NCBI GenBank assembly: GCA_001780725.1
Contig: MFIM01000027.1
Coordinates: forward strand, 1 to 48,840
DNA length: 48,840 nucleotides
Source: Candidatus Giovannonibacteria bacterium RIFCSPLOWO2_02_FULL_45_28
Lineage (GTDB): Bacteria; Patescibacteriota; Minisyncoccia; UBA11713; 2-01-FULL-45-33
Direction: 5' to 3'
A model generated the notes under the pieces. That model saw only the letters and a list, made by a program, of their open reading frames with translations. It made no database searches and was not told where the DNA came from. How positions within the stretch are numbered: the first letter of the stretch is position 1; each line of letters begins with the position of its first letter. The position numbers and the translations under genes were made by a program. Below are positions 40,801 to 46,212 of the stretch, piece after piece.

Positions 40801-41377
40801 TAACGACATTATAAACGCGCGGAAAATTCTCTCTGCCTCCGGGCTTTGGTCAATTGACGAGAACGGGAAGCTAATCGTTCAGGAAATTGAAACCAAAAAA
40901 CTCACTGTAACAGGACAGCAGGGGATTACTATTTACGACCGCGTTACAGGACAACCCGTTTGTGTTTATTCCGAAAACGGAGTTTTGAAGTCGGAAGATG
41001 GGGAGTGTTGGGCCGCCGAAACTGGCGGGAAAACATCCGATGTTTCCGCCGAAGGCGGATCCGCCTCTGGCGGAGAGGAGCTAGTTTCGGATACTGACCC
41101 TCCAACAATCTCAATTTTGGGCAACAATCCTTCCGCCATTAATGTAGGCGGAACCTATTCTGACATGGGGGTCACGGTAACTGATAATATTGATCAAAAT
41201 TTGGGATACACGGCTTCTTTAGATGGCGGGCTTGAACTTTTGCAGGGAGATGGACTTCAAATTGATACCTCAAAGGCTGGCGAACATATAATTATTTACA
41301 CGGCAGCGGATTCGGCAGGGAATACCGCTTCGTCCACAAGAACAGTAGAAGTAGTAGAAATTTATGGAAATCAGTAG
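34853..41377 (+). CDS. giant membrane-anchored fibre/adhesin-like protein
   Basis: N-terminal excisionase-like HTH (YLSASEAARLCNY..YVGQLCRGGKI), TM, about 12 GNVGIGT modules, chaperone/autoprocessing-like region (DIAETY..GVVS..ALAGRVPVKV..IKPGD), C-terminal DUF5011-like Ig (DTDPPTISILGNNP). Start uncertain (34838/34853/34862). Confidence 0.85.
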   Translation: MKYMKEKYLSASEAARLCNYHRIYVGQLCRGGKIDCKKFGTDWMVSEESILNYKKELTSKNLSLTPSQGRGKNNTLPFGEGEGWVTEKSSSTLQDIFHAQDKPDDVWDRAILGEKEKEAFWFPEFSLKQWSLGAVSLSSILIAALIFYNAGAIKNSIADAVESVNVSAKNFVTKTSSIPLLAKERMGNVVEFTSLIRRSGEGVVEIFNNFGSSGLELAQNGKDWVSETASAVADEIKNGSALLNKIPDVVADNLIFVEKKALVALSLPKFSLPFTLEDVRLSLSDIKMRFFNNIFAARDYIVFLGLDIKKVALDFVSSPSPSGKTLGVFGDSTPSVEEDGEQKPSPLIVSKNLPLTPSQGRGKNNTLPFGEGEGGVTEKSPPFLQGEGLERSRGVDESSIISRVLSSINITQRFQELENRLTSNLSLLISNIEKRIPPNVQNPVVFLTASAPSPIRNDPPQQISGVSAGFGDFSQGISTGGNLSATGNVTLGDDAKTASIASSVWDITSAGAASGFISLSTNSLSASTFNLSGLLTTGGFIATASSTIIGDLTFQNATSTGYLSVTGSATSTFANGIKLTGGCFLLLDGTCAGTGSGSGLTGTIGQVAYFSGTDSAVGTSTIVISTSGNVGIGTAAPQTILDVLGTASSTLYLANIGSESAPAYSFAGGSNGGFFQNPSGTIGISTGGAARVTFASSGLSMGVNGTAASPSIAWSADGDTGIFRDSSDQLAFTAGGIEALRFIEVNSIVTSYFNAGNVGIGTTSPSATLSVAGNTYLDSNLITYSSSTAANLTISYQRAATTTIPQSINAFAIGTTTGPTAPILSIDGLNGRVGIGTANPLVPLQLNGNIFHINNDNAEIGLGSSRSFNRLLVDSDTNVGLVGKKNVWIGIDSDNSGTDATFGIVANDDWLGGSETPLFTVTEAGSVGIGTTSPASLLSVAGNTYLDSNLITYSSSTAANLTISYQRAATTTIPQSINAFAIGTTTGPTAPILSIDGLNGRVGIGTANPLVPLQLNGNIFHINNDNAEIGLGSSRSFNRLLVDSDTNVGLVGKKNVWIGIDSDNSGTDATFGIVANDDWLGGSETPLFTVTEAGSVGIGTTSPASLLSVAGNTYLDSNLITYSSSTAANLTISYQRAATTTIPQSRNAFAIGTTTGLTAPIFSIDGLNGRVGIGTAAPSATLTVLGSGTLLSLQSGGGVAFSVSTSQMLFDADNQPFAIGENADYSLGHNSTTDNFEIVDGSTIGTNVRMVISSSGNVGIGTTSPAATLSVTGNTYLDSNLITYSSSTAANLTISYQRAATTTIPNLAINAWSIATSTSNTPVFTISSTSSPFGLIGIGTSSPSYTLSIAGNEYLTGGLGVGKATTTAGVIESSGLILSGGVFAALGTATSTFSGDINLPTGKCYQVNGTCTLMSAITSLNGLTGTTQTFASNDLISIVSPAAGTVHNFYGSTTPTFGWLHATSSTASFFTGALGIGTTSPWGLLSVNPDGISGPAFVVGSSTATNFIVTNGGNVGIGTAAPTAGLMLDIRGDMSVNNDGYYAFAEDKVNWSIHGRTTDSTTMLGSALKTTIIPGSGTTEGFAIAGAGLASSFEARNDGQIYMKGNVGIGTTSPATTLSVAGNTYLDSNLITYSSSTAANLTVSYQRAATTTIPINTVYAWSIATSTTASPLFTFNTNGPYATTSINGGFVLNNGAVNYDSSSGIISADSIQTGPMGFDTDAGIVSWIDMPSSTTTANIVNSYSAMLDSTAILTIYGTTTTSGNITYGHVGIGTTSPTIARLSVQGNIAAFGCIRSATSTYSIGPASCVDIAETYPISEDASAGDIMMVGPDGKLKKATDRAGLIGVVSSEPAILLEGPVAFFGSQINNQTLEHKTGSMAPIALAGRVPVKVSAEGGPIKPGDRITISSAPGVGMKATTSGQTVGIALEPYDSGEIGKIIVFINLGYSKLDSGLSQALDGNGGLIVDQASGKMKSSYTLDMDNNDIINARKILSASGLWSIDENGKLIVQEIETKKLTVTGQQGITIYDRVTGQPVCVYSENGVLKSEDGECWAAETGGKTSDVSAEGGSASGGEELVSDTDPPTISILGNNPSAINVGGTYSDMGVTVTDNIDQNLGYTASLDGGLELLQGDGLQIDTSKAGEHIIIYTAADSAGNTASSTRTVEVVEIYGNQ
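35026..35992 (+). repeat. 94-bp in-frame multi-hairpin repeat, two copies (35026-35119, 35899-35992)
   Basis: 3 mismatches between copies; contains CCCCTTCC-caa-GGAAGGGG and CCCTCCCC-ttt-GGGGAGGG. Confidence 0.85.
35809..35875 (+). repeat. GGGAA/GAGGA structured element, copy 3
   Basis: CTCGCCGTCa-GGGAA-AACACTCGGTGTT-N11-AACACCGAGTGTT-GAGGA-gGACGGCGAG. Confidence 0.85.
37166..38288 (+). repeat. 507-bp tandem duplication (about 2.2 copies) in the giant gene
   Basis: Units start at 37166, 37673 and 38180; the ORF track shows identical antisense ORFs offset by 507. Confidence 0.9.
41016..41090 (+). repeat. GGGAA/GAGGA structured element, copy 4 (composite)
   Basis: CCGAAACTGGC-GGGAA-AACATCCGATGTT-TCCGCCgaaGGCGGA-TCCGCCtctGGCGGA-GAGGA-GCTAGTTTCGG. 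Confidence 0.85.
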
Positions 41378-41993
41378 AAACTTATGGAAATTGATTTTGA
41401 TTGCGGCGCTGATTTTGGGTGCGGCGAGTTTCTATAAGTTTCAATTTATTTCCACAAGTTTCAATGATTCCAATGGCTCTCAACCAGTTTCAACCAATTT
41501 CAACGAATATCGCAACGCAGATTTCAAATTTTCTTTTCAGTATCCTAAAAACCTAACTCTCCAGGAATTTGATGATGAAAGGGGACATGTGATTTTGTTT
41601 GAGGCGAGCGGGAAAACATCCGATGTTGAATCCCCAAAAACATCGGATGTTGAGGAGCTCGCCGGCTTCCAAATTTTCATAGCTCCTTTCGACGAAGAAG
41701 GCCCAATAACTCCCGAACGCATAAAAAAAGACTTGCTTAATATTGTCGTGGAAAATCCAACTCCGACAAAAGTCGGCCCTTCGACAGGCTCAGGGCAAGC
41801 TGACGCTTTGAGTTTTGTCGGAGAAGGGGACCCGCCTACCGGCGAGGCAGGCGGCTTTAAAACCGCCGAGGTCTGGTTTGTTTATCCCCCCGAACCCTAC
41901 CCCAACGGAAATTATCTTTATCAAGTCACCGCGAAGCTGGAGGACGCAACTTTAATAGAAGAGATTTTGAAAACATGGAGATTTAGCCGCTGA
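41364..41993 (+). CDS. membrane-anchored PsbP-like protein
   Basis: TM, YRNADFKFSFQYP, GFQIFI, EVWF..YLYQV, EILKTWRF; carries three palindromic inserts. Confidence 0.7.
   Translation: MEISRNLWKLILIAALILGAASFYKFQFISTSFNDSNGSQPVSTNFNEYRNADFKFSFQYPKNLTLQEFDDERGHVILFEASGKTSDVESPKTSDVEELAGFQIFIAPFDEEGPITPERIKKDLLNIVVENPTPTKVGPSTGSGQADALSFVGEGDPPTGEAGGFKTAEVWFVYPPEPYPNGNYLYQVTAKLEDATLIEEILKTWRFSR
41603..41663 (+). repeat. GGGAA/GAGGA structured element, copy 5
   Basis: GGCGAGC-GGGAA-AACATCCGATGTT-N11-AACATCGGATGTT-GAGGA-GCTCGCC. Confidence 0.88.
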
Positions 41994-42028
41994 TACTTCG
42001 CTGATTACTACGCAGATAAAACGCTGAT
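41988..42028 (+). repeat. left array of 4 CGCWGAT units
   Basis: Units at 41988, 41999, 42011, 42022. Confidence 0.85.
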
Positions 42029-42030
42029 CT

Positions 42031-42435
42031 ATGAAAAACAAAGTAAAATATTTTTTATACGAGAGGGAGTCCTACCTTATACGAGGGGCGTGTTTTGAGG
42101 TATGGAAAGAATTTAAAGGTATGTTTAAAGAATCGGTAATAGACCGCGCTCTAAACATCGCGCTTGAATCACGCGGCTTAAAAGTTGAATCGCAGAAGAG
42201 AATTGATATCTACTTTAAAGATAAAAAGGTGGGCACTTATGTTCCCGATAAAATTGTTGAAGGCAAGATTCTGCTCGAGTTAAAAGCAAAACCATTTATT
42301 ACTAAACAAGATATTGAACAATTTTGGAAGTACCTTAAGGGCTCACAATACAAACTTGGGTTTCTTATAAATTTTTCACCCACGAGATTACAAATTAAAC
42401 GCGTCGTATATGATACTGCCCGTAAATCAGCGTAA
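42031..42435 (+). CDS. GxxExxY family protein (PD-(D/E)xK nuclease fold)
   Basis: SYLIRGACFEVWKEFKGMFKESV, VGTYVPDKIVEGKILLELKA, YLKGSQYKLGFLINF. Confidence 0.88.
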   Translation: MKNKVKYFLYERESYLIRGACFEVWKEFKGMFKESVIDRALNIALESRGLKVESQKRIDIYFKDKKVGTYVPDKIVEGKILLELKAKPFITKQDIEQFWKYLKGSQYKLGFLINFSPTRLQIKRVVYDTARKSA

Positions 42436-44593
42436 AATCAGCGTTTTTATCAGCATGATATCAGCGGTCGTTGTAGCCGCCTTTCTTTTTATCGTATCAC
42501 CCAATAGTGCGGCGGCCGCCTTACTCATAAATCGCCCCTTATATATCGGCTTAAATAGCGGCCTCGTCGGCTACTGGTCTTTTGATGGCCCGGATATGGC
42601 GAACGTCACCGCTTACGACCGCTCGGGTAACGCGAACAACGGCACTCTCACCAACGGCCCCACTCGAGCAGTAGGCAGAATCGGCCAGGCGCTGGAGTTT
42701 GACGGGGCAGATGACAGAGTTGATATCAGCTCCCCCAGTTTTAATGGCGCAGAACCATTTACAATCAGCGTATGGATAAAACCTGCGAGTTTGGGGGAAG
42801 GAAGTTTGGGACGCATTATGTCGTTTAATAATGCCACTACTGATGACTTAAGAATGGGTGTCGGTCCATTAGTAAATTTTTCCCCCAATGGTGGTGCGGG
42901 AGGGGATTGTGACTCTAACAATATTACTCTTAATGTTTGGGTTCATGTGGTGTTTACGCTTTCAAGCACAGGTGTTTGTACATTTTACATTGATGGAGTG
43001 AATCAAACTTTTGATAGTTCTGGTCAAACAATCGGGGCTTCAACAAGTTTTTCCATAGGAAATTTGGTAGGTGGCGTAACTAGAACTTTCGACGGTCCCA
43101 TTGACGAATTCCGTTTCTACAATCGCATCCTCTCCCCAGACGAAATAAAACGCCTCTATAAAATCGGGGCGACGCTGAAAGTCAATAAACCCAACTATGT
43201 GGGGTTGGATAACGGCCTCGTCGGCTATTGGTCTTTTGACGGGCCGGATATGGCGGGGAACACCGCGTACGATAGAAGCGGGCAAAACAACCACGTCTCT
43301 TCTACCGGGTCAAATATGCCTACTCGCTCGGCTGGAAAAATAGGGCAGGGACTGAAGTTCGACAATGCCAATGATTATATTGAGATTACTTCCTTTGCGC
43401 GCGGAGGCAACTTTACCTGGGCGGGATGGATTTTCCCCATAACCACCGGTGGGGGAGATAAAGGCAGACTATTCAATAATGGCATCACAGGGGCTATACA
43501 GGTTGGTTTGTATGTAAGCGGATCGCCTACACCATATATAGAATTAACAACCAATACTGGAGTATGGAGAAGCCCAAGTGGGAGCATAGAACTGAATAAA
43601 TGGCAACATGTAGCAGTTGTTTTTGATTCCACCTCTACGAATAACGATCCTGTTTTCTATATCAATGGATCTTTAGTATCAACATCGGAGTTTACTACGC
43701 CCACGAATACGCCATCGGACAATGTTTTGCTTACTATTGGAAATAATCCTAATACCGAGCTTACTAGGACCTTTGACGGAACTCTTGATGAAATGCGTGC
43801 CTACAACCGCGCGCTGTCGGCGGACGAAATCAAACGCCTCTACAAAATCGGGGCGACGCTGAAAGTAAATAAACCTAACTACGTGGGCTTAAATAGCGGC
43901 CTCGTCGGCTACTGGTCTTTTGACGGCCCGGATATGTACAACAACACCGCGCTTGACCGCTCCGGTCAGGGCAACAACGGCACGCTCACAAACGGCCCCA
44001 CGCGCAAAGTTGGCCGCATCGGCCAGGGGCTGGAGTTTGATGGGAGTAATGATTATGTGGATATTGCCAACGAAAGTAACTTTGATTTTGAGCGTACCCA
44101 ACCATTTTCATATTCTCTATGGACAAAACCTAAGGCTGGGGATACCAGTATTTCCTTAGCGCTTGGAAAAATTTTAGATTCTGGAAATTTCACTGGATGG
44201 GCACTTCTTACAAATTACGATTATAGTTCTAACACCGAAGTAGCCGGCAGATTAGCTGTAGCACTTGTCAATATCTCCGGTACCACAAATGCTATTGGTA
44301 TTGAGGCTGATTCAAAGATCAATGATGGAGGATGGCATCATTATACTGTTACATATGATGGTTCAAGCTTTGCAAGTGGTATAAAAATCTATGAAGATGG
44401 TATATCACTTGCTCTTAATGTTGCTTCTGATAGCCTTACCGGTTCGATACTTAATAACGTTAATGTAGAAATCGGTGATAGAGATAGTGGTGCGAGTTCC
44501 TTAAACTATCCCGGCCTTATCGACGAAGTCCGCATCTACAACCGCGCGCTTTCCGGCGATGAAATCAAGCGGCTCTATAATTTGGGACGGTAG
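42410..44593 (+). CDS. secreted protein with three LamG-like jelly-roll domains
   Basis: Signal peptide; 3x GLVGYWSFDG...GQ.L.FD...W.H...G..DE.R.YNR.LS..EIKRLY; true start may be 42455. Confidence 0.88.
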   Translation: MILPVNQRKISVFISMISAVVVAAFLFIVSPNSAAAALLINRPLYIGLNSGLVGYWSFDGPDMANVTAYDRSGNANNGTLTNGPTRAVGRIGQALEFDGADDRVDISSPSFNGAEPFTISVWIKPASLGEGSLGRIMSFNNATTDDLRMGVGPLVNFSPNGGAGGDCDSNNITLNVWVHVVFTLSSTGVCTFYIDGVNQTFDSSGQTIGASTSFSIGNLVGGVTRTFDGPIDEFRFYNRILSPDEIKRLYKIGATLKVNKPNYVGLDNGLVGYWSFDGPDMAGNTAYDRSGQNNHVSSTGSNMPTRSAGKIGQGLKFDNANDYIEITSFARGGNFTWAGWIFPITTGGGDKGRLFNNGITGAIQVGLYVSGSPTPYIELTTNTGVWRSPSGSIELNKWQHVAVVFDSTSTNNDPVFYINGSLVSTSEFTTPTNTPSDNVLLTIGNNPNTELTRTFDGTLDEMRAYNRALSADEIKRLYKIGATLKVNKPNYVGLNSGLVGYWSFDGPDMYNNTALDRSGQGNNGTLTNGPTRKVGRIGQGLEFDGSNDYVDIANESNFDFERTQPFSYSLWTKPKAGDTSISLALGKILDSGNFTGWALLTNYDYSSNTEVAGRLAVALVNISGTTNAIGIEADSKINDGGWHHYTVTYDGSSFASGIKIYEDGISLALNVASDSLTGSILNNVNVEIGDRDSGASSLNYPGLIDEVRIYNRALSGDEIKRLYNLGR
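42426..42466 (-). repeat. right array of 4 ATCAGCR units (inverse of the left array)
   Basis: Units at 42426, 42437, 42449, 42460. Confidence 0.85.
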
Positions 44594-44625: not shown

Positions 44626-44823
44626 ATGTATAACTGGTCAACCGATATAAAAAACCTTAAAAAACACCCGGAAAAATATAAAATCTGGAGGCTTGAACAG
44701 ATGATAAATTTTGGTTTGAATGGTAAAAAATTGAAAGAATTTGAGCTTAATAAATATTTTAACAAACTCAAAATCGATCCGTATCGTCGTAAATTTTTAA
44801 AACTACTTTTGAATGGAAAGTAA
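44626..44823 (+). CDS. putative antitoxin (DUF6922-like)
   Basis: 65 aa, NWSTD..L.K....IWRLEQMINFG; overlaps an AbiEii-like gene. Confidence 0.65.
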   Translation: MYNWSTDIKNLKKHPEKYKIWRLEQMINFGLNGKKLKEFELNKYFNKLKIDPYRRKFLKLLLNGK

Positions 44824-45469
44824 AATTTTAGACGAAAGGCAAATTAAATTTTTAGAAGAATTTCAAAAAATACCATTTTTGAAAGATAATTTTTATCTTA
44901 CCGGAGGGACGGCTCTTGCGGCTTTTTATCTCAAACATCGTTATTCGGAAGATTTGGATTTTTTTTCGGAAAAAGAAATAGATCTTTTAAATTTAGACAC
45001 GTCGTTAAAAAAACTTCAGAAAACATTAAAGCCGAATAAGGTTGATTTTCAGCAAAGCTATAATCGCAACTTATTTTTTTTGAGTTTCGGAAAACATATT
45101 TTAAAAACCGAATTTACTTATTTCCCATTCCTGAGAATAGACAGCAAGGTTTCAAAAAAAGGCATTTCTGTAGATAGCTTGATAGATATCGCGGTAAATA
45201 AGCTTTTTACCATATATCAGAGGGTTGCCGCGCGGGACTATATAGATTTGTATTTTATAATTGAGCGAGAAGACTTTAAAATTAACGACTTGATTTTGAA
45301 AGCTAAAGCAAAATTTGATTGGAATGTAGATCCTATACAGTTGGGGGCGCAATTTGTTAAATCCGGAGAAGCCGAAGATTTTCCAAGAATGATTGAGAAA
45401 ATCAAAACAGCTGTTTGGAGAAAATTTTTTATTGATGAAGCGAAAAAACTAAAGAGAAAAATTATTTAA
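44813..45469 (+). CDS. AbiEii/AbiGii-family nucleotidyltransferase toxin
   Basis: FYLTGGTALA..HRYSEDLDFF, DIAVNKL..IYQR..RDYIDLYF. Confidence 0.88.
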   Translation: MESKILDERQIKFLEEFQKIPFLKDNFYLTGGTALAAFYLKHRYSEDLDFFSEKEIDLLNLDTSLKKLQKTLKPNKVDFQQSYNRNLFFLSFGKHILKTEFTYFPFLRIDSKVSKKGISVDSLIDIAVNKLFTIYQRVAARDYIDLYFIIEREDFKINDLILKAKAKFDWNVDPIQLGAQFVKSGEAEDFPRMIEKIKTAVWRKFFIDEAKKLKRKII

Positions 45470-45470
45470 T

Positions 45471-45551
45471 GGCCTCATCGACGATGTCCGCGTCTACAAC
45501 AGGGCGCTTAATGGGAACGAGATTAAGAGATTGTATAATTTGGGGAGATAG
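45471..45551 (+). pseudogene. orphan 3' end of a LamG gene
   Basis: GLIDDVRVYNRALNGNEIKRLYNLGR*, 22/26 aa identical to 44513-44593; no start codon. Confidence 0.9.
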
Positions 45552-45583
45552 ATTTTTACTCAAATGCATGCTATAATAAGGGC

Positions 45584-45817
45584 ATGATTCCATCCAACAT
45601 TAAGCGGTATTTTTGGGAAGTAGATACGGAAAAACTTAATCCCAAGAAGCGTCCGGAATATATTATTTCGCGGCTATTAGAATACGGCAGGCCCGACGCG
45701 ATCCGCTGGGCATGGAGGTCTTTTTCTAAAAAAGAATGGGGAAAGGCGTTAAAATTACGTGAGGTGTCAAGGAAAAGCAAAAATTTTTGGTTGCCGTTTT
45801 TGTCTAATAAACAATGA
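45584..45817 (+). CDS. putative antitoxin (DUF6922-like)
   Basis: YFWEVDTEKLNPKKRPEYIISRLLEYG; TGCTATAAT ends 7 nt upstream. Confidence 0.75.
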   Translation: MIPSNIKRYFWEVDTEKLNPKKRPEYIISRLLEYGRPDAIRWAWRSFSKKEWGKALKLREVSRKSKNFWLPFLSNKQ

Positions 45818-46212
45818 ATTTTTCTTTGGAAAATATCAGGCCCAATGTCAGGGCTCTGGCGGAAAAATTAAGCGCCAAAAGTTTTATTAGTAAGTTTTAT
45901 TTGGCGGGCGGAACTGCTATCGCACTATTTTTTAATCATAGGCGTTCTGACGATTTAGACTTTTTTTCGGAAAAAATGTTTAAAGGAGTGGCTTTGATAA
46001 ACAATTTAAAAAAAACAGGTAAATTCGAAACACTCAAAACAGACGAAAACACCTTAATCGGCAAATTAAATGGCGTCAAAAGTCTTGCTTATTTTAATGA
46101 CGCAGAATACGATGAAATGCCAGAAATGTATATTGATATTAAATGGCGGGAGGTAAAAAATTTTTTCTTGAAACAAAAGTTGGTTTTAGCCAAAAAGTTC
46201 TTCGGAATTTAA
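45814..46212 (+). pseudogene. AbiEii-family toxin with in-frame internal deletion
   Basis: FYLAGGTAIAL..HRRSDDLDFF..GVK joined directly to SLAYFNDAE; 132 aa vs 218 aa neighbour; K..R..D..D helix region missing. Confidence 0.7.

Follow-up and report, generated by a model that had tools for sequence, protein, structure and literature searches.

A GxxExxY nuclease gene between phased inverted arms: a candidate selfish cassette in a bacterial adhesin operon

Introduction

In the REP/REPIN-RAYT systems a single gene lies between inverted short repeats, and doublets of these repeats without the gene are found across the same genome. Free-standing homing endonuclease genes, including those of PD-(D/E)xK homing enzymes, are small nuclease genes placed among host genes or in conserved sites, and the ends of Tn7 and Mu carry several phased transposase-binding sites with a distinct terminal copy.

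The Rickettsia palindromic elements (RPEs) are palindromic DNA that lies in frame in housekeeping genes and is read through as an extra peptide (PMC10969869), and the ORF-bearing 23S rRNA intervening sequences (IVSs) of Coxiella and Leptospira are stretches of a few hundred nucleotides with terminal inverted repeats and one small ORF (PMC4990558). The locus described here lies in the window, by which we mean the whole stretch of 48,840 nucleotides that was analysed, between two surface-protein genes of an adhesin operon and not in rRNA. Its one enclosed gene encodes a GxxExxY protein, and our literature search returned no biochemical or genetic data on any protein of that name.

Results

An earlier note on this DNA had described four short units upstream of the GxxExxY gene and four inverted units downstream, in mirrored spacing of 11,12,11, and had placed an upstream stop codon at 41991-41993, the GxxExxY stop and an ATG of the LamG gene at 42455 within these arrays. 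All of these positions were recovered, and the locus is laid out as follows.

41364..41993, plus strand: upstream host gene, 209 aa, without a family match; its orthologues end ..TW(K/R)F plus 1-3 residues
41987..42467, plus strand: whole cassette, 481 nt, ends CCGCTGA...TCAGCGG, delimited by the inverted repeat and by similarity to the G002 copy (L019) that stops at 42467
41987..42031, plus strand: left arm, four CGCWGAT units at 41988, 41999, 42011 and 42022, spacing 11,12,11
42031..42435, plus strand: GxxExxY/PDDEXK_3 gene, 134 aa, intact; Pfam PF13366 at E 3.4e-27 (95.6 bits, cut-off 22), NCBIfam TIGR04256 at E 8.8e-28 (97 bits, cut-off 35)
42423..42467, plus strand: right arm, four inverted units at 42426, 42437, 42449 (variant) and 42460, spacing 11,12,11
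42455..44593, plus strand: downstream host gene (LamG), with three Laminin_G_3 domains

The right arm carries CGCWGAT on the minus strand at 42426, 42437 and 42460 and a one-letter variant at 42449-42455. A repeat search returned the two arms as an inverted repeat (41987-42031 / 42423-42467) of 45 nt with 73% complementarity and a gap of 391 nt, and the cassette thus has terminal inverted repeats of the kind expected of MITEs and TIR transposons. The fit between arms and genes is close. The GxxExxY ORF takes up the inter-arm space to within 2 nt, its own ATG following the innermost left unit by 2 nt and its stop falling between right-arm units 1 and 2; the left arm includes the last codon and the TGA stop of the upstream gene, and the right arm includes the GxxExxY stop and the ATG at which LamG probably starts. 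Scans for promoters and terminators gave results at chance level.

CGCWGAT occurs 22 times in the window, against 10.7 +/- 3.2 in shuffled sequence (22 or more in 0/100 shuffles), and among its 305 matches in the genome (886,299 bases) the only runs of at least three units spaced by at most 25 nt are the two window arms. The same genome holds no second copy, with or without a gene, of the window cassette's own unit type. A run search listed 20 DNA runs from 14 studies with the region and no RNA run; in four lower-share metagenome runs (contigs, depth 3-5), assembled sequence crosses both arms and shows no differences. The shuffles, the genome-wide count, the bridging contigs and the recurrence of the arrays at related loci rule out chance and assembly error as the source of the arrays. 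The earlier note had also suggested looking for junctions between about 41990 and about 42465; no joint that skips 41987-42467 was found in the contigs of the four runs, which drop rare variants, so that rare excision may have escaped them. With the cassette unchanged in these four runs and no second copy of its unit type in the genome, we see no sign of current movement.

The enclosed gene matches PF13366 only and is not an HUH Y1 transposase of the REP/REPIN-RAYT kind. E34, D73 and K85 do not vary across 90 sequences, in which E83 is at least 90% conserved, and the catalytic PD-(D/E)xK residues E..D..ExK are present in the window protein. That PD..ELK is intact and that the motif tyrosine is an isoleucine, as first noticed from the translation, are both borne out by the alignment and by this conservation. 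The literal G-x-x-E-x-x-Y motif is absent, the window protein reading M-F-K-E-S-V-I with the glutamate kept; since the closest relatives share the isoleucine (it is found in L019, L012 and L004), we regard it as a trait of the subclade, not as decay. Open frames are found in 75 of the 80 homologues. The AF2 model of the window nuclease has a pLDDT of 89.9, and a Foldseek search of the PDB with it returned generic PD-(D/E)xK matches only, of which the best (Cas4, lambda exonuclease and Hjc) are weak, with TM <=0.50; a sequence search against solved structures gave no match below E 0.2.

The flanking genes of relatives show the junction in several states. In one relative, G007, it is empty, as the earlier note had supposed it might be somewhere: the two flanking genes are directly joined and overlap, stop overlapping start. 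In G013, G031 and G036 the same junction holds an unrelated gene for a four-helix-bundle "23S rRNA IVS protein" (PF05635) with its own inverted arrays, and cassettes of like design with this other cargo indicate that the nuclease is not needed for the design; the genome studied here has no PF05635 gene. Similarity of the downstream gene to its G013 orthologue begins after the signal peptide. The label PsbP-like, given earlier to the upstream gene, finds no Pfam or NCBIfam match at E<=0.01. Deleting 41987-42467 in silico leaves the host genes without a sensible stop or start; the junction has been remodelled, and the exact target is no longer readable.

A cassette whose protein is 87% identical to that of the window (L019, in G002) lies elsewhere: in a different genus, it is flanked by a KH-domain gene and trmD. 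The DNA similarity between the two copies ends sharply, exactly at the arm tip (42467). To judge by sequence comparison, the window cassette is an insertion.

A search for related loci, seeded with seven closer sequences, yielded 80 loci, all from the window's own branch of the family. The architecture is conserved in the 78 related loci compared for arms, which span many bacterial phyla. As the earlier note had anticipated, in-register inverted arrays recur at most of them: at least two units stand on both sides in 60/78 and at least three in 42/78, the opposite orientation is found in 0/78, and fewer than two CGCNGA-type units on either side in 13/78. The word CGCNGA occurs upstream at 3.04 per 200 nt, against 0.17 for the reverse word, and TCNGCG downstream at 2.86 per 200 nt, against 0.31. 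In a 6-mer test that was blind to the motif, 50/78 loci scored at least 2 for inverted repeats, and 2/78 did so for direct repeats. Spacings of 10-12 nt make up 129/164 of those upstream and 125/155 of those downstream, and in the cassette family each arm is built as a phased array in which units of 7-8 nt, usually four of them, recur at roughly one helical turn. Where both arms have four units (29 loci), the spacing is mirrored as 10-12-10 on both arms in 12 loci and as 11-12-11 in 5.

The outermost unit is distinct in the letters that precede it, CC (22) or AA (19), those before inner units being AC (143/172). The left end in the 29 loci follows three bases that are mostly T (18), A (20) and A or G (25), spelling TAA/TAG, and no fixed target-site duplication was found among them (0 nt in 20/29, 1 nt in 6, 2 nt in 2 and 4 nt in 1). 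Cassettes of the AAGC-ended class have ..TAG on one side and CTA.. on the other, which could be either an extended repeat or a TA duplication. Of 119 flanking ORF pieces, 106 point the same way as the cassette gene. In a quick protein tree of 113 columns, with 35/86 inner branches unresolved, the class of the arms tracks the protein and not the host phylum, and the copies that lie within genes form one clade of 15.

Free-standing copies, of which the intergenic window cassette is one, occupy well over a dozen unrelated gene pairs, although some operon junctions recur (LemA-HtpX x4, T2SSF-pilin x3, upstream of glyA x3, RsmI-MetRS x2). Within genes, too, sites are reused: lepA is entered in 7/80 loci and also in G000 and G002, recG in 2 and leuS in 2. 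Recurrent sites with empty alleles are thus a property of the in-gene clade (lepA, recG, leuS), and the window's clade uses diverse sites. The genome's second GxxExxY copy belongs here, lying in frame inside lepA, and gene-less arm pairs lie in frame in its tsaD, gatB, recG and lepA. In unit and spacing class these pairs agree with the lepA copy and differ from the window copy, and they hold the 11-12-nt phasing across their centre. Host genes read through the insertions: the gene-less copies and the lepA copy are palindromic inserts translated in frame, as RPEs are, and in lepA, recG and leuS the sister copies keep the reading frame open.

These insertions are polymorphic. Among 18 aligned sequences only G000 and G002 have the lepA insert, and the LepA proteins of G017 (92% identical to that of G002) and G013 (90%) are without it. 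At the recG site, 16/29 relatives have the empty length (33-34 aa); G000 has an arm pair there without a gene, and L129 and L136 have the complete cassette. At lepA there is no sign of co-conversion, the similarity of the G000 and G002 proteins not being raised beside the insert.

Discussion

Overall, we would give roughly even chances to the view that window positions 41987-42467 are a copy of a widespread selfish cassette family, a GxxExxY nuclease gene between inverted phased arms, with the mechanism proposed below included. Of the earlier reading, the minimal selfish cassette inserted into an adhesin operon is supported, in light of the empty site in G007, the other cassettes at the junction in G013, G031 and G036, the G002 copy elsewhere and the recurring arrays; its second part, excision or processing at the RNA level, is not supported.

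The cassette resembles REP/REPIN-RAYT systems in that its gene is flanked by inverted short repeats and gene-less arm pairs share the genome, but it has four-unit phased arrays, in-frame intragenic copies and close relatives across phyla, and no HUH Y1 transposase. With homing endonuclease genes it shares a small nuclease gene wedged among host genes or into conserved ones and the reuse of sites; it differs from them in the conserved inverted arrays on both sides, the many unrelated sites and the gene-less derivatives. As in Tn7 and Mu, the inverted ends are built from a repeated word, here a putative binding site, with a distinct terminal copy, but there is no transposase or integrase gene, no target duplication, and the total size is below 0.5 kb. 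The gene-less arm pairs in tsaD, gatB, recG and lepA behave like RPEs; RPEs, as far as the cited account describes them, have no linked gene (PMC10969869), whereas here the same arms also carry one, and the hosts are CPR bacteria and many other phyla.

The 23S rRNA IVSs are likewise short cassettes with inverted ends and one small ORF, patchily distributed and suspected of horizontal transfer (PMC4990558), and the family of their ORF, PF05635, occupies the window's junction in three relatives. They have a continuous 28-bp stem (PMC4990558), however, and not phased arrays of one short word, whereas the cassettes described here lie outside rRNA, carry a PD-(D/E)xK nuclease and have sister copies that are translated in frame, and excision by RNase III would, we propose, not be needed.

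Three other explanations deserve to be weighed. It is unlikely, in our judgement, that the arms are a mobile or recombinogenic framework moved by another enzyme or by general recombination, with GxxExxY as one of several passenger genes. Two unrelated cargos in one kind of frame at the same junction, the occurrence of gene-less arm pairs, and the phasing of 11-12 nt across their centre, which makes the arm pair look like the basic unit, would all suit such a framework; yet across phyla it is the GxxExxY clade that the unit word and the spacing class track, the ORF leaves no more than 2 nt of the inter-arm space unused, and PF05635 is missing from this genome.

We find it more doubtful still that the cassette is an RNA-level element of the rRNA intervening-sequence type, whose arms would pair in the operon transcript, the stem then being cut by an RNase III-like activity or holding the upstream stop beside the downstream start, so that translational coupling of the host genes survives. 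In the MFE and centroid folds the arms do pair in register, forming four short helices broken by internal loops, just as had been drawn from the letters at the outset; the upstream stop and the LamG ATG both lie in pairing arm segments, and stop and start overlap in the empty site of G007. The alternative cargo at the junction also belongs to a family named for 23S rRNA intervening sequences, the stems of which are cut by RNase III in the account cited (PMC4990558). Moreover, all units are alike, so that pairing of the RNA would need no register-specific covariation. Nonetheless, the folding z-score of the whole stretch is only -1.96, and Rfam has no relevant match in 41300-43000. Across the 29 loci with four units on both sides, the variable unit letter matches in register in 75/116 cases and out of register in 233/348, the spacer letters match in 70/217 and 62/166, respectively, and about one unit pair in three (41/116) has a central mismatch. 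Because unit and spacing alone are common to the two arms, with no in-register complementarity beyond the unit, we take the units to be phased sites at which protein binds the DNA; in these alignments the conserved feature is the units, not a stem. The open, in-frame sister copies in lepA, recG and leuS are a constraint unexpected for an RNA that is removed, and their read-through makes a need for removal unlikely.

The least probable of the three is a classical site-specific homing endonuclease gene, in which the nuclease would cut its site in alleles without the insert and accessory arms would serve autoregulation or homology: the repeated use of lepA, recG and leuS, the recurring operon junctions and the single clade of 15 in-gene copies fit it, but it has to contend with the many unrelated gene pairs that hold free-standing copies, with the unrelated sites of the window copy and the copy with the 87%-identical protein, with LepA similarity between G000 and G002 that is not raised next to the insert, and with conserved phased arrays on both sides, which it leaves without a reason.

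A possible pathway of a selfish nuclease cassette can be sketched. A multimer of the GxxExxY nuclease would bind the units on one face of duplex DNA and bring both arms together, and would cut at the distinct outermost unit or close to it. The cassette might then spread by break-and-repair or by cut-and-paste, using host repair enzymes, and would settle where it does little harm, either right after a stop codon between co-directional genes, as in the window, or in frame within surface loops of conserved proteins. In this context, the gene-less arm pairs would be non-autonomous relatives of the cassette.

More tentatively, GxxExxY proteins may be the enzymes of a new class of prokaryotic mobile element, a type of which we found no description in the published literature searched. 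Such an element would be a cassette of about 0.5 kb, its sole gene a PD-(D/E)xK nuclease of 125-135 aa that recognises phased heptamer arrays at the ends, and it would move itself and gene-less arm pairs into operon junctions and, in frame and unspliced, into essential genes in many phyla. Cassettes with the four-helix-bundle "IVS protein" would then form a sister class with the same arm design.

Regardless of the specific mode of movement, neighbouring genes draw stop and start codons, and signal-peptide codons too, from the cassette arms, which bears on annotation, and the fixed partnership with phased inverted arrays gives GxxExxY/PDDEXK_3, a large family without known function, a concrete hypothesis that can be assayed. 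If the cassettes do move, they would add a very small, nuclease-only element to known mobile DNA, and may be the source of at least some of the translated palindromic inserts in housekeeping proteins of the ultra-small (CPR) bacteria. The long-unexplained ORF-bearing rRNA intervening sequences would then be tied to a wider cassette family.

A nuclease gene between inverted arrays

The repeat-flanked nuclease gene in the window is real: a 481-nt cassette (41987-42467) in which a GxxExxY (PDDEXK_3) gene stands between two arms, each an array of evenly spaced 7-nt words (units), with those of the right arm inverted relative to the left. Units, open reading frames and repeat were all re-found, and the earlier note was correct in its coordinates and in what it said of arrays, stops and ATG; its "PsbP-like" label for the upstream gene drew no support from Pfam or NCBIfam profile search.

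41988, 41999, 42011 and 42022, plus strand: left-arm CGCWGAT units, spacing 11, 12, 11
42426, 42437, 42449 (one-letter variant) and 42460: inverted right-arm units, spacing 11, 12, 11
41987-42031 and 42423-42467: inverted repeat from the repeat search, 45 nt, 73% complementary, 391 nt apart
42031-42435: open reading frame between the arms, 134 aa, PF13366 (3.4e-27) and TIGR04256 (8.8e-28)

The window holds 22 CGCWGAT matches against 10.7 +/- 3.2 in shuffled sequence, a number reached by 0 of 100 shuffles, and of the 305 matches across all 886,299 bases of the genome, only those in the two arms form runs of at least three. The stop of the upstream gene (41991-93) lies within the first left-arm unit, and the arms contribute the last codon and stop of that gene; the GxxExxY stop falls between units 1 and 2 of the right arm, and the Laminin_G_3 (LamG) gene downstream has an in-frame ATG at 42455, inside the right arm, which likely supplies its start. 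Promoter and terminator signals at the cassette did not rise above chance, and it is probably transcribed with the operon. The window copy gave no sign of current movement: the contigs of four metagenome runs include the cassette without difference, and none skips it. A search for RNA runs covering the region found none.

Two other features of the window were recorded. At 44626-46212 lie two gene pairs in tandem, each with a small gene ahead of an AbiEii-type nucleotidyltransferase gene; in the second pair the small gene carries DUF6922 and the AbiEii gene is short (132 aa). At 41042-41076, within the 2179-aa adhesin gene (peptide ..AEGGSASGGEE..), there is a short GC-rich double hairpin, which is evidently common to many organisms because its summed contig depth in four soil metagenome runs (~370-660) is far above that of its surroundings (3-5).

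Insertion at the host junction

The window cassette is an insertion, and one member of a widespread cassette family. Orthologues of the upstream gene occur in 9 of the 41 genomes searched (that of the window, G000, counted), with a LamG-type gene downstream in five. In G007 the stop of the upstream gene overlaps the start of the LamG-type gene and no sequence separates the two, an empty site of the kind that the earlier note had envisaged. In G013, G031 and G036 the same junction is filled by a gene of 119-123 aa for a four-helix-bundle protein (PF05635, "23S rRNA IVS protein"; Pfam-checked in G013 only, 1.4e-21), each with flanking inverted arrays of its own, built on a different word. In G013 (L023 560-700, minus strand) and G036 (L029 ~2420-2520) the LamG protein takes its N-terminus, the signal-peptide region, from translation of the downstream array. 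G018, G015, G019 and G012 have a different downstream gene, or the locus ends ~190 nt beyond the upstream gene. The proposal of a selfish cassette inserted into an adhesin operon is thus supported, both by the empty site and by the other cassettes at the same junction.

A near-identical copy (L019) in the related genome G002, its protein 87% identical to that of the window, occupies the junction of a KH-domain gene with trmD. The left tip of this copy comes 2 nt after the stop upstream, and the right tip lies 1 nt ahead of the trmD ATG. Because DNA similarity to this copy stops exactly at window 42467, the cassette ends can be set at CCGCTGA...TCAGCGG. L019 also has ~70 extra nt with a hairpin between left arm and nuclease ATG (~1400-1467).

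A widespread cassette family

PF13366 is present in 17 of 41 relatives (G000 counted), and many of these genes have, by eye and without a count, inverted arrays of other words. A scan of species-level genomes, using as query the family branch to which the window protein belongs, gave 196 relatives, from which 80 loci were kept, in Patescibacteria (many classes), Omnitrophota, Gammaproteobacteria, Bdellovibrionales, Chlamydiae, Elusimicrobia, Planctomycetales, Ignavibacteria and one Helarchaeota-labelled MAG. The expectation that inverted arrays would recur at other GxxExxY loci was borne out in the 78 loci whose flanks were long enough: at least two units stand on both sides in 60 and at least three in 42, 13 have fewer than two on either side, and none reaches two on both sides in the opposite orientation. 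Per 200 nt, CGCNGA occurs 3.04 times upstream vs 0.17 for the reverse word, and TCNGCG 2.86 vs 0.31 downstream; spacing is 10-12 nt in 129/164 cases upstream and 125/155 downstream, and a motif-blind 6-mer test agrees with the unit counts. Five of the 80 related genes are interrupted by a single stop codon: in L076 and L116, CGCNGA-type words still flank the gene left and right (6-mer score 4), and L081, L112 and L118 have few or none. L068 and L069, from MAGs labelled Helarchaeota and Gammaproteobacteria, have identical GxxExxY proteins and the same flank Pfam match and ORF coordinates, either through a binning mix-up or through very recent transfer.

In a quick maximum-likelihood tree (90 sequences, 113 columns; 35 of 86 inner branches unresolved), the window's group has mostly CC-ended, 11-12-11 arms, AA-ended, 10-12-10 arms belong mainly to another group (SH-aLRT 95), and all 15 members of a third are in-frame copies (lepA, leuS, recG, glycosyltransferase, asnB, other long ORF). 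Host phyla are mixed within each, and on these sequences arm type follows protein clade rather than host phylum. In-gene sites recur in lepA (7 of the 80 loci, plus G000 and G002), leuS (2) and recG (2). Free-standing copies lie between many gene pairs, LemA-HtpX four times, T2SSF-pilin three, upstream of glyA three, RsmI-MetRS twice, and atpD-atpC, tldD/pmbA, RF-secA and lspA-lgt once each; flanking ORF pieces are co-directional with the nuclease gene in 106 of 119 cases. Directly ahead of the left tip, most of 29 loci have T (18), A (20) and A or G (25) at three successive positions, which gives TAA or TAG; no regular target duplication was found in these loci.

In-gene and gene-less copies

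The G000 genome contains two matches to PF13366. The second is a full cassette in frame within lepA, without its own ATG, whose arms have four CGCRGAA-type units spaced 10-12 nt. Among 18 aligned LepA proteins it occurs in G000 and G002 only; it is missing from G001, of the same genus, and from two genomes with LepA cores close to the G002 one, G017 (92% identity) and G013 (90%). At the same LepA linker, which follows the G domain (PPP motif), most relatives in this 18-genome alignment have a different short insert (for example EAGLPSGSPAS, TLGVFGDSTPSV, KSDFPGKSDF), and G005, G012 and G033 have none.

L001 1..2127, minus strand (G000:C20): full lepA cassette, in frame
L141 2042-2123, L142 1050-1131 and L143 1129-1214: loci noted with G000 gene-less arm pairs

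These gene-less arm pairs, both arms with no nuclease gene between, are ~80 nt long with eight units, their 11-12-nt phasing continuous across the centre. In G000 they lie in frame within tsaD-like, gatB, recG and lepA genes, the inserts reading as peptides of the type ..AEQ..TQ..AE..LRNSASS.RESA; half arrays occur in a PolX-like gene and mfd. The pairs match the lepA copy in unit and spacing class, not the window copy, and the genome holds no gene-less copy of the window's unit type. The recG site has a base length of 33-34 aa in 16 of 29 relatives and a 26-aa arm-pair insert in G000, with a shorter relative in G009; in L129 and L136, from other lineages, a full cassette occupies the site.

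The nuclease and its arms

E34, D73 and K85 are invariant among aligned homologues and E83 nearly so. The predicted structure (pLDDT 89.9) is a plain PD-(D/E)xK core whose best PDB matches are weak (TM <=0.50: Cas4 SSO0001, lambda exonuclease, Hjc), and sequence search found no solved relative. The motif Tyr is Ile in the window protein, and this is no sign of decay, because L019, L012 and L004 have the same change.

In 29 loci with 4+4 units, the window among them, the variable letter of paired units is the same in 75/116 cases in register vs 233/348 out of register, and middle spacer letters agree in 70/217 vs 62/166; therefore only unit word and spacing are kept between arms, and a central mismatch is expected in ~1 of 3 unit pairs. 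Spacing is mirrored, with both arms at 10-12-10 in 12 loci and at 11-12-11 in five; CC (22) or AA (19) stands before the outermost unit, AC before inner ones (143/172). The near-helical-turn period, the repeated words in each arm and the special terminal copy are more in keeping with sites on duplex DNA to which a protein binds than with a stem, of RNA or DNA, under selection. The most likely mechanism, in which we place middling confidence, is that the encoded nuclease would recognise the phased units at the DNA level; the main rival is that something else moves the arms, with the nuclease as mere cargo. Excision at the RNA level is not supported. The arms do pair in the RNA fold of the window cassette (z-score -1.96), a pairing for which the repeated word by itself accounts.

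Relation to known elements

Accessible text on GxxExxY mentions it incidentally, a superfamily survey gives the function of PDDEXK_3/PF13366 as "Unknown", one further, unrelated paper mentions the family, and our search of the open literature found no published description of such cassettes. The accessible parts of a Coxiella study (PMC4990558) describe rRNA intervening sequences that carry an ORF, have inverted repeats at their ends and are excised by RNase III, recall old proposals of their mobility, and do not mention arrays. The family PF05635 has a relative in the DGR protein Avd. A MITE review (PMC10969869) describes Rickettsia palindromic elements in frame. The cassettes can be set beside these ORF-bearing intervening sequences, free-standing nuclease genes and RPE/MITE-like repeats. 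The selfish-cassette reading is supported, and we suggest, tentatively and with more doubt than we attach to the mechanism, that the cassette may represent a new class of mobile element.
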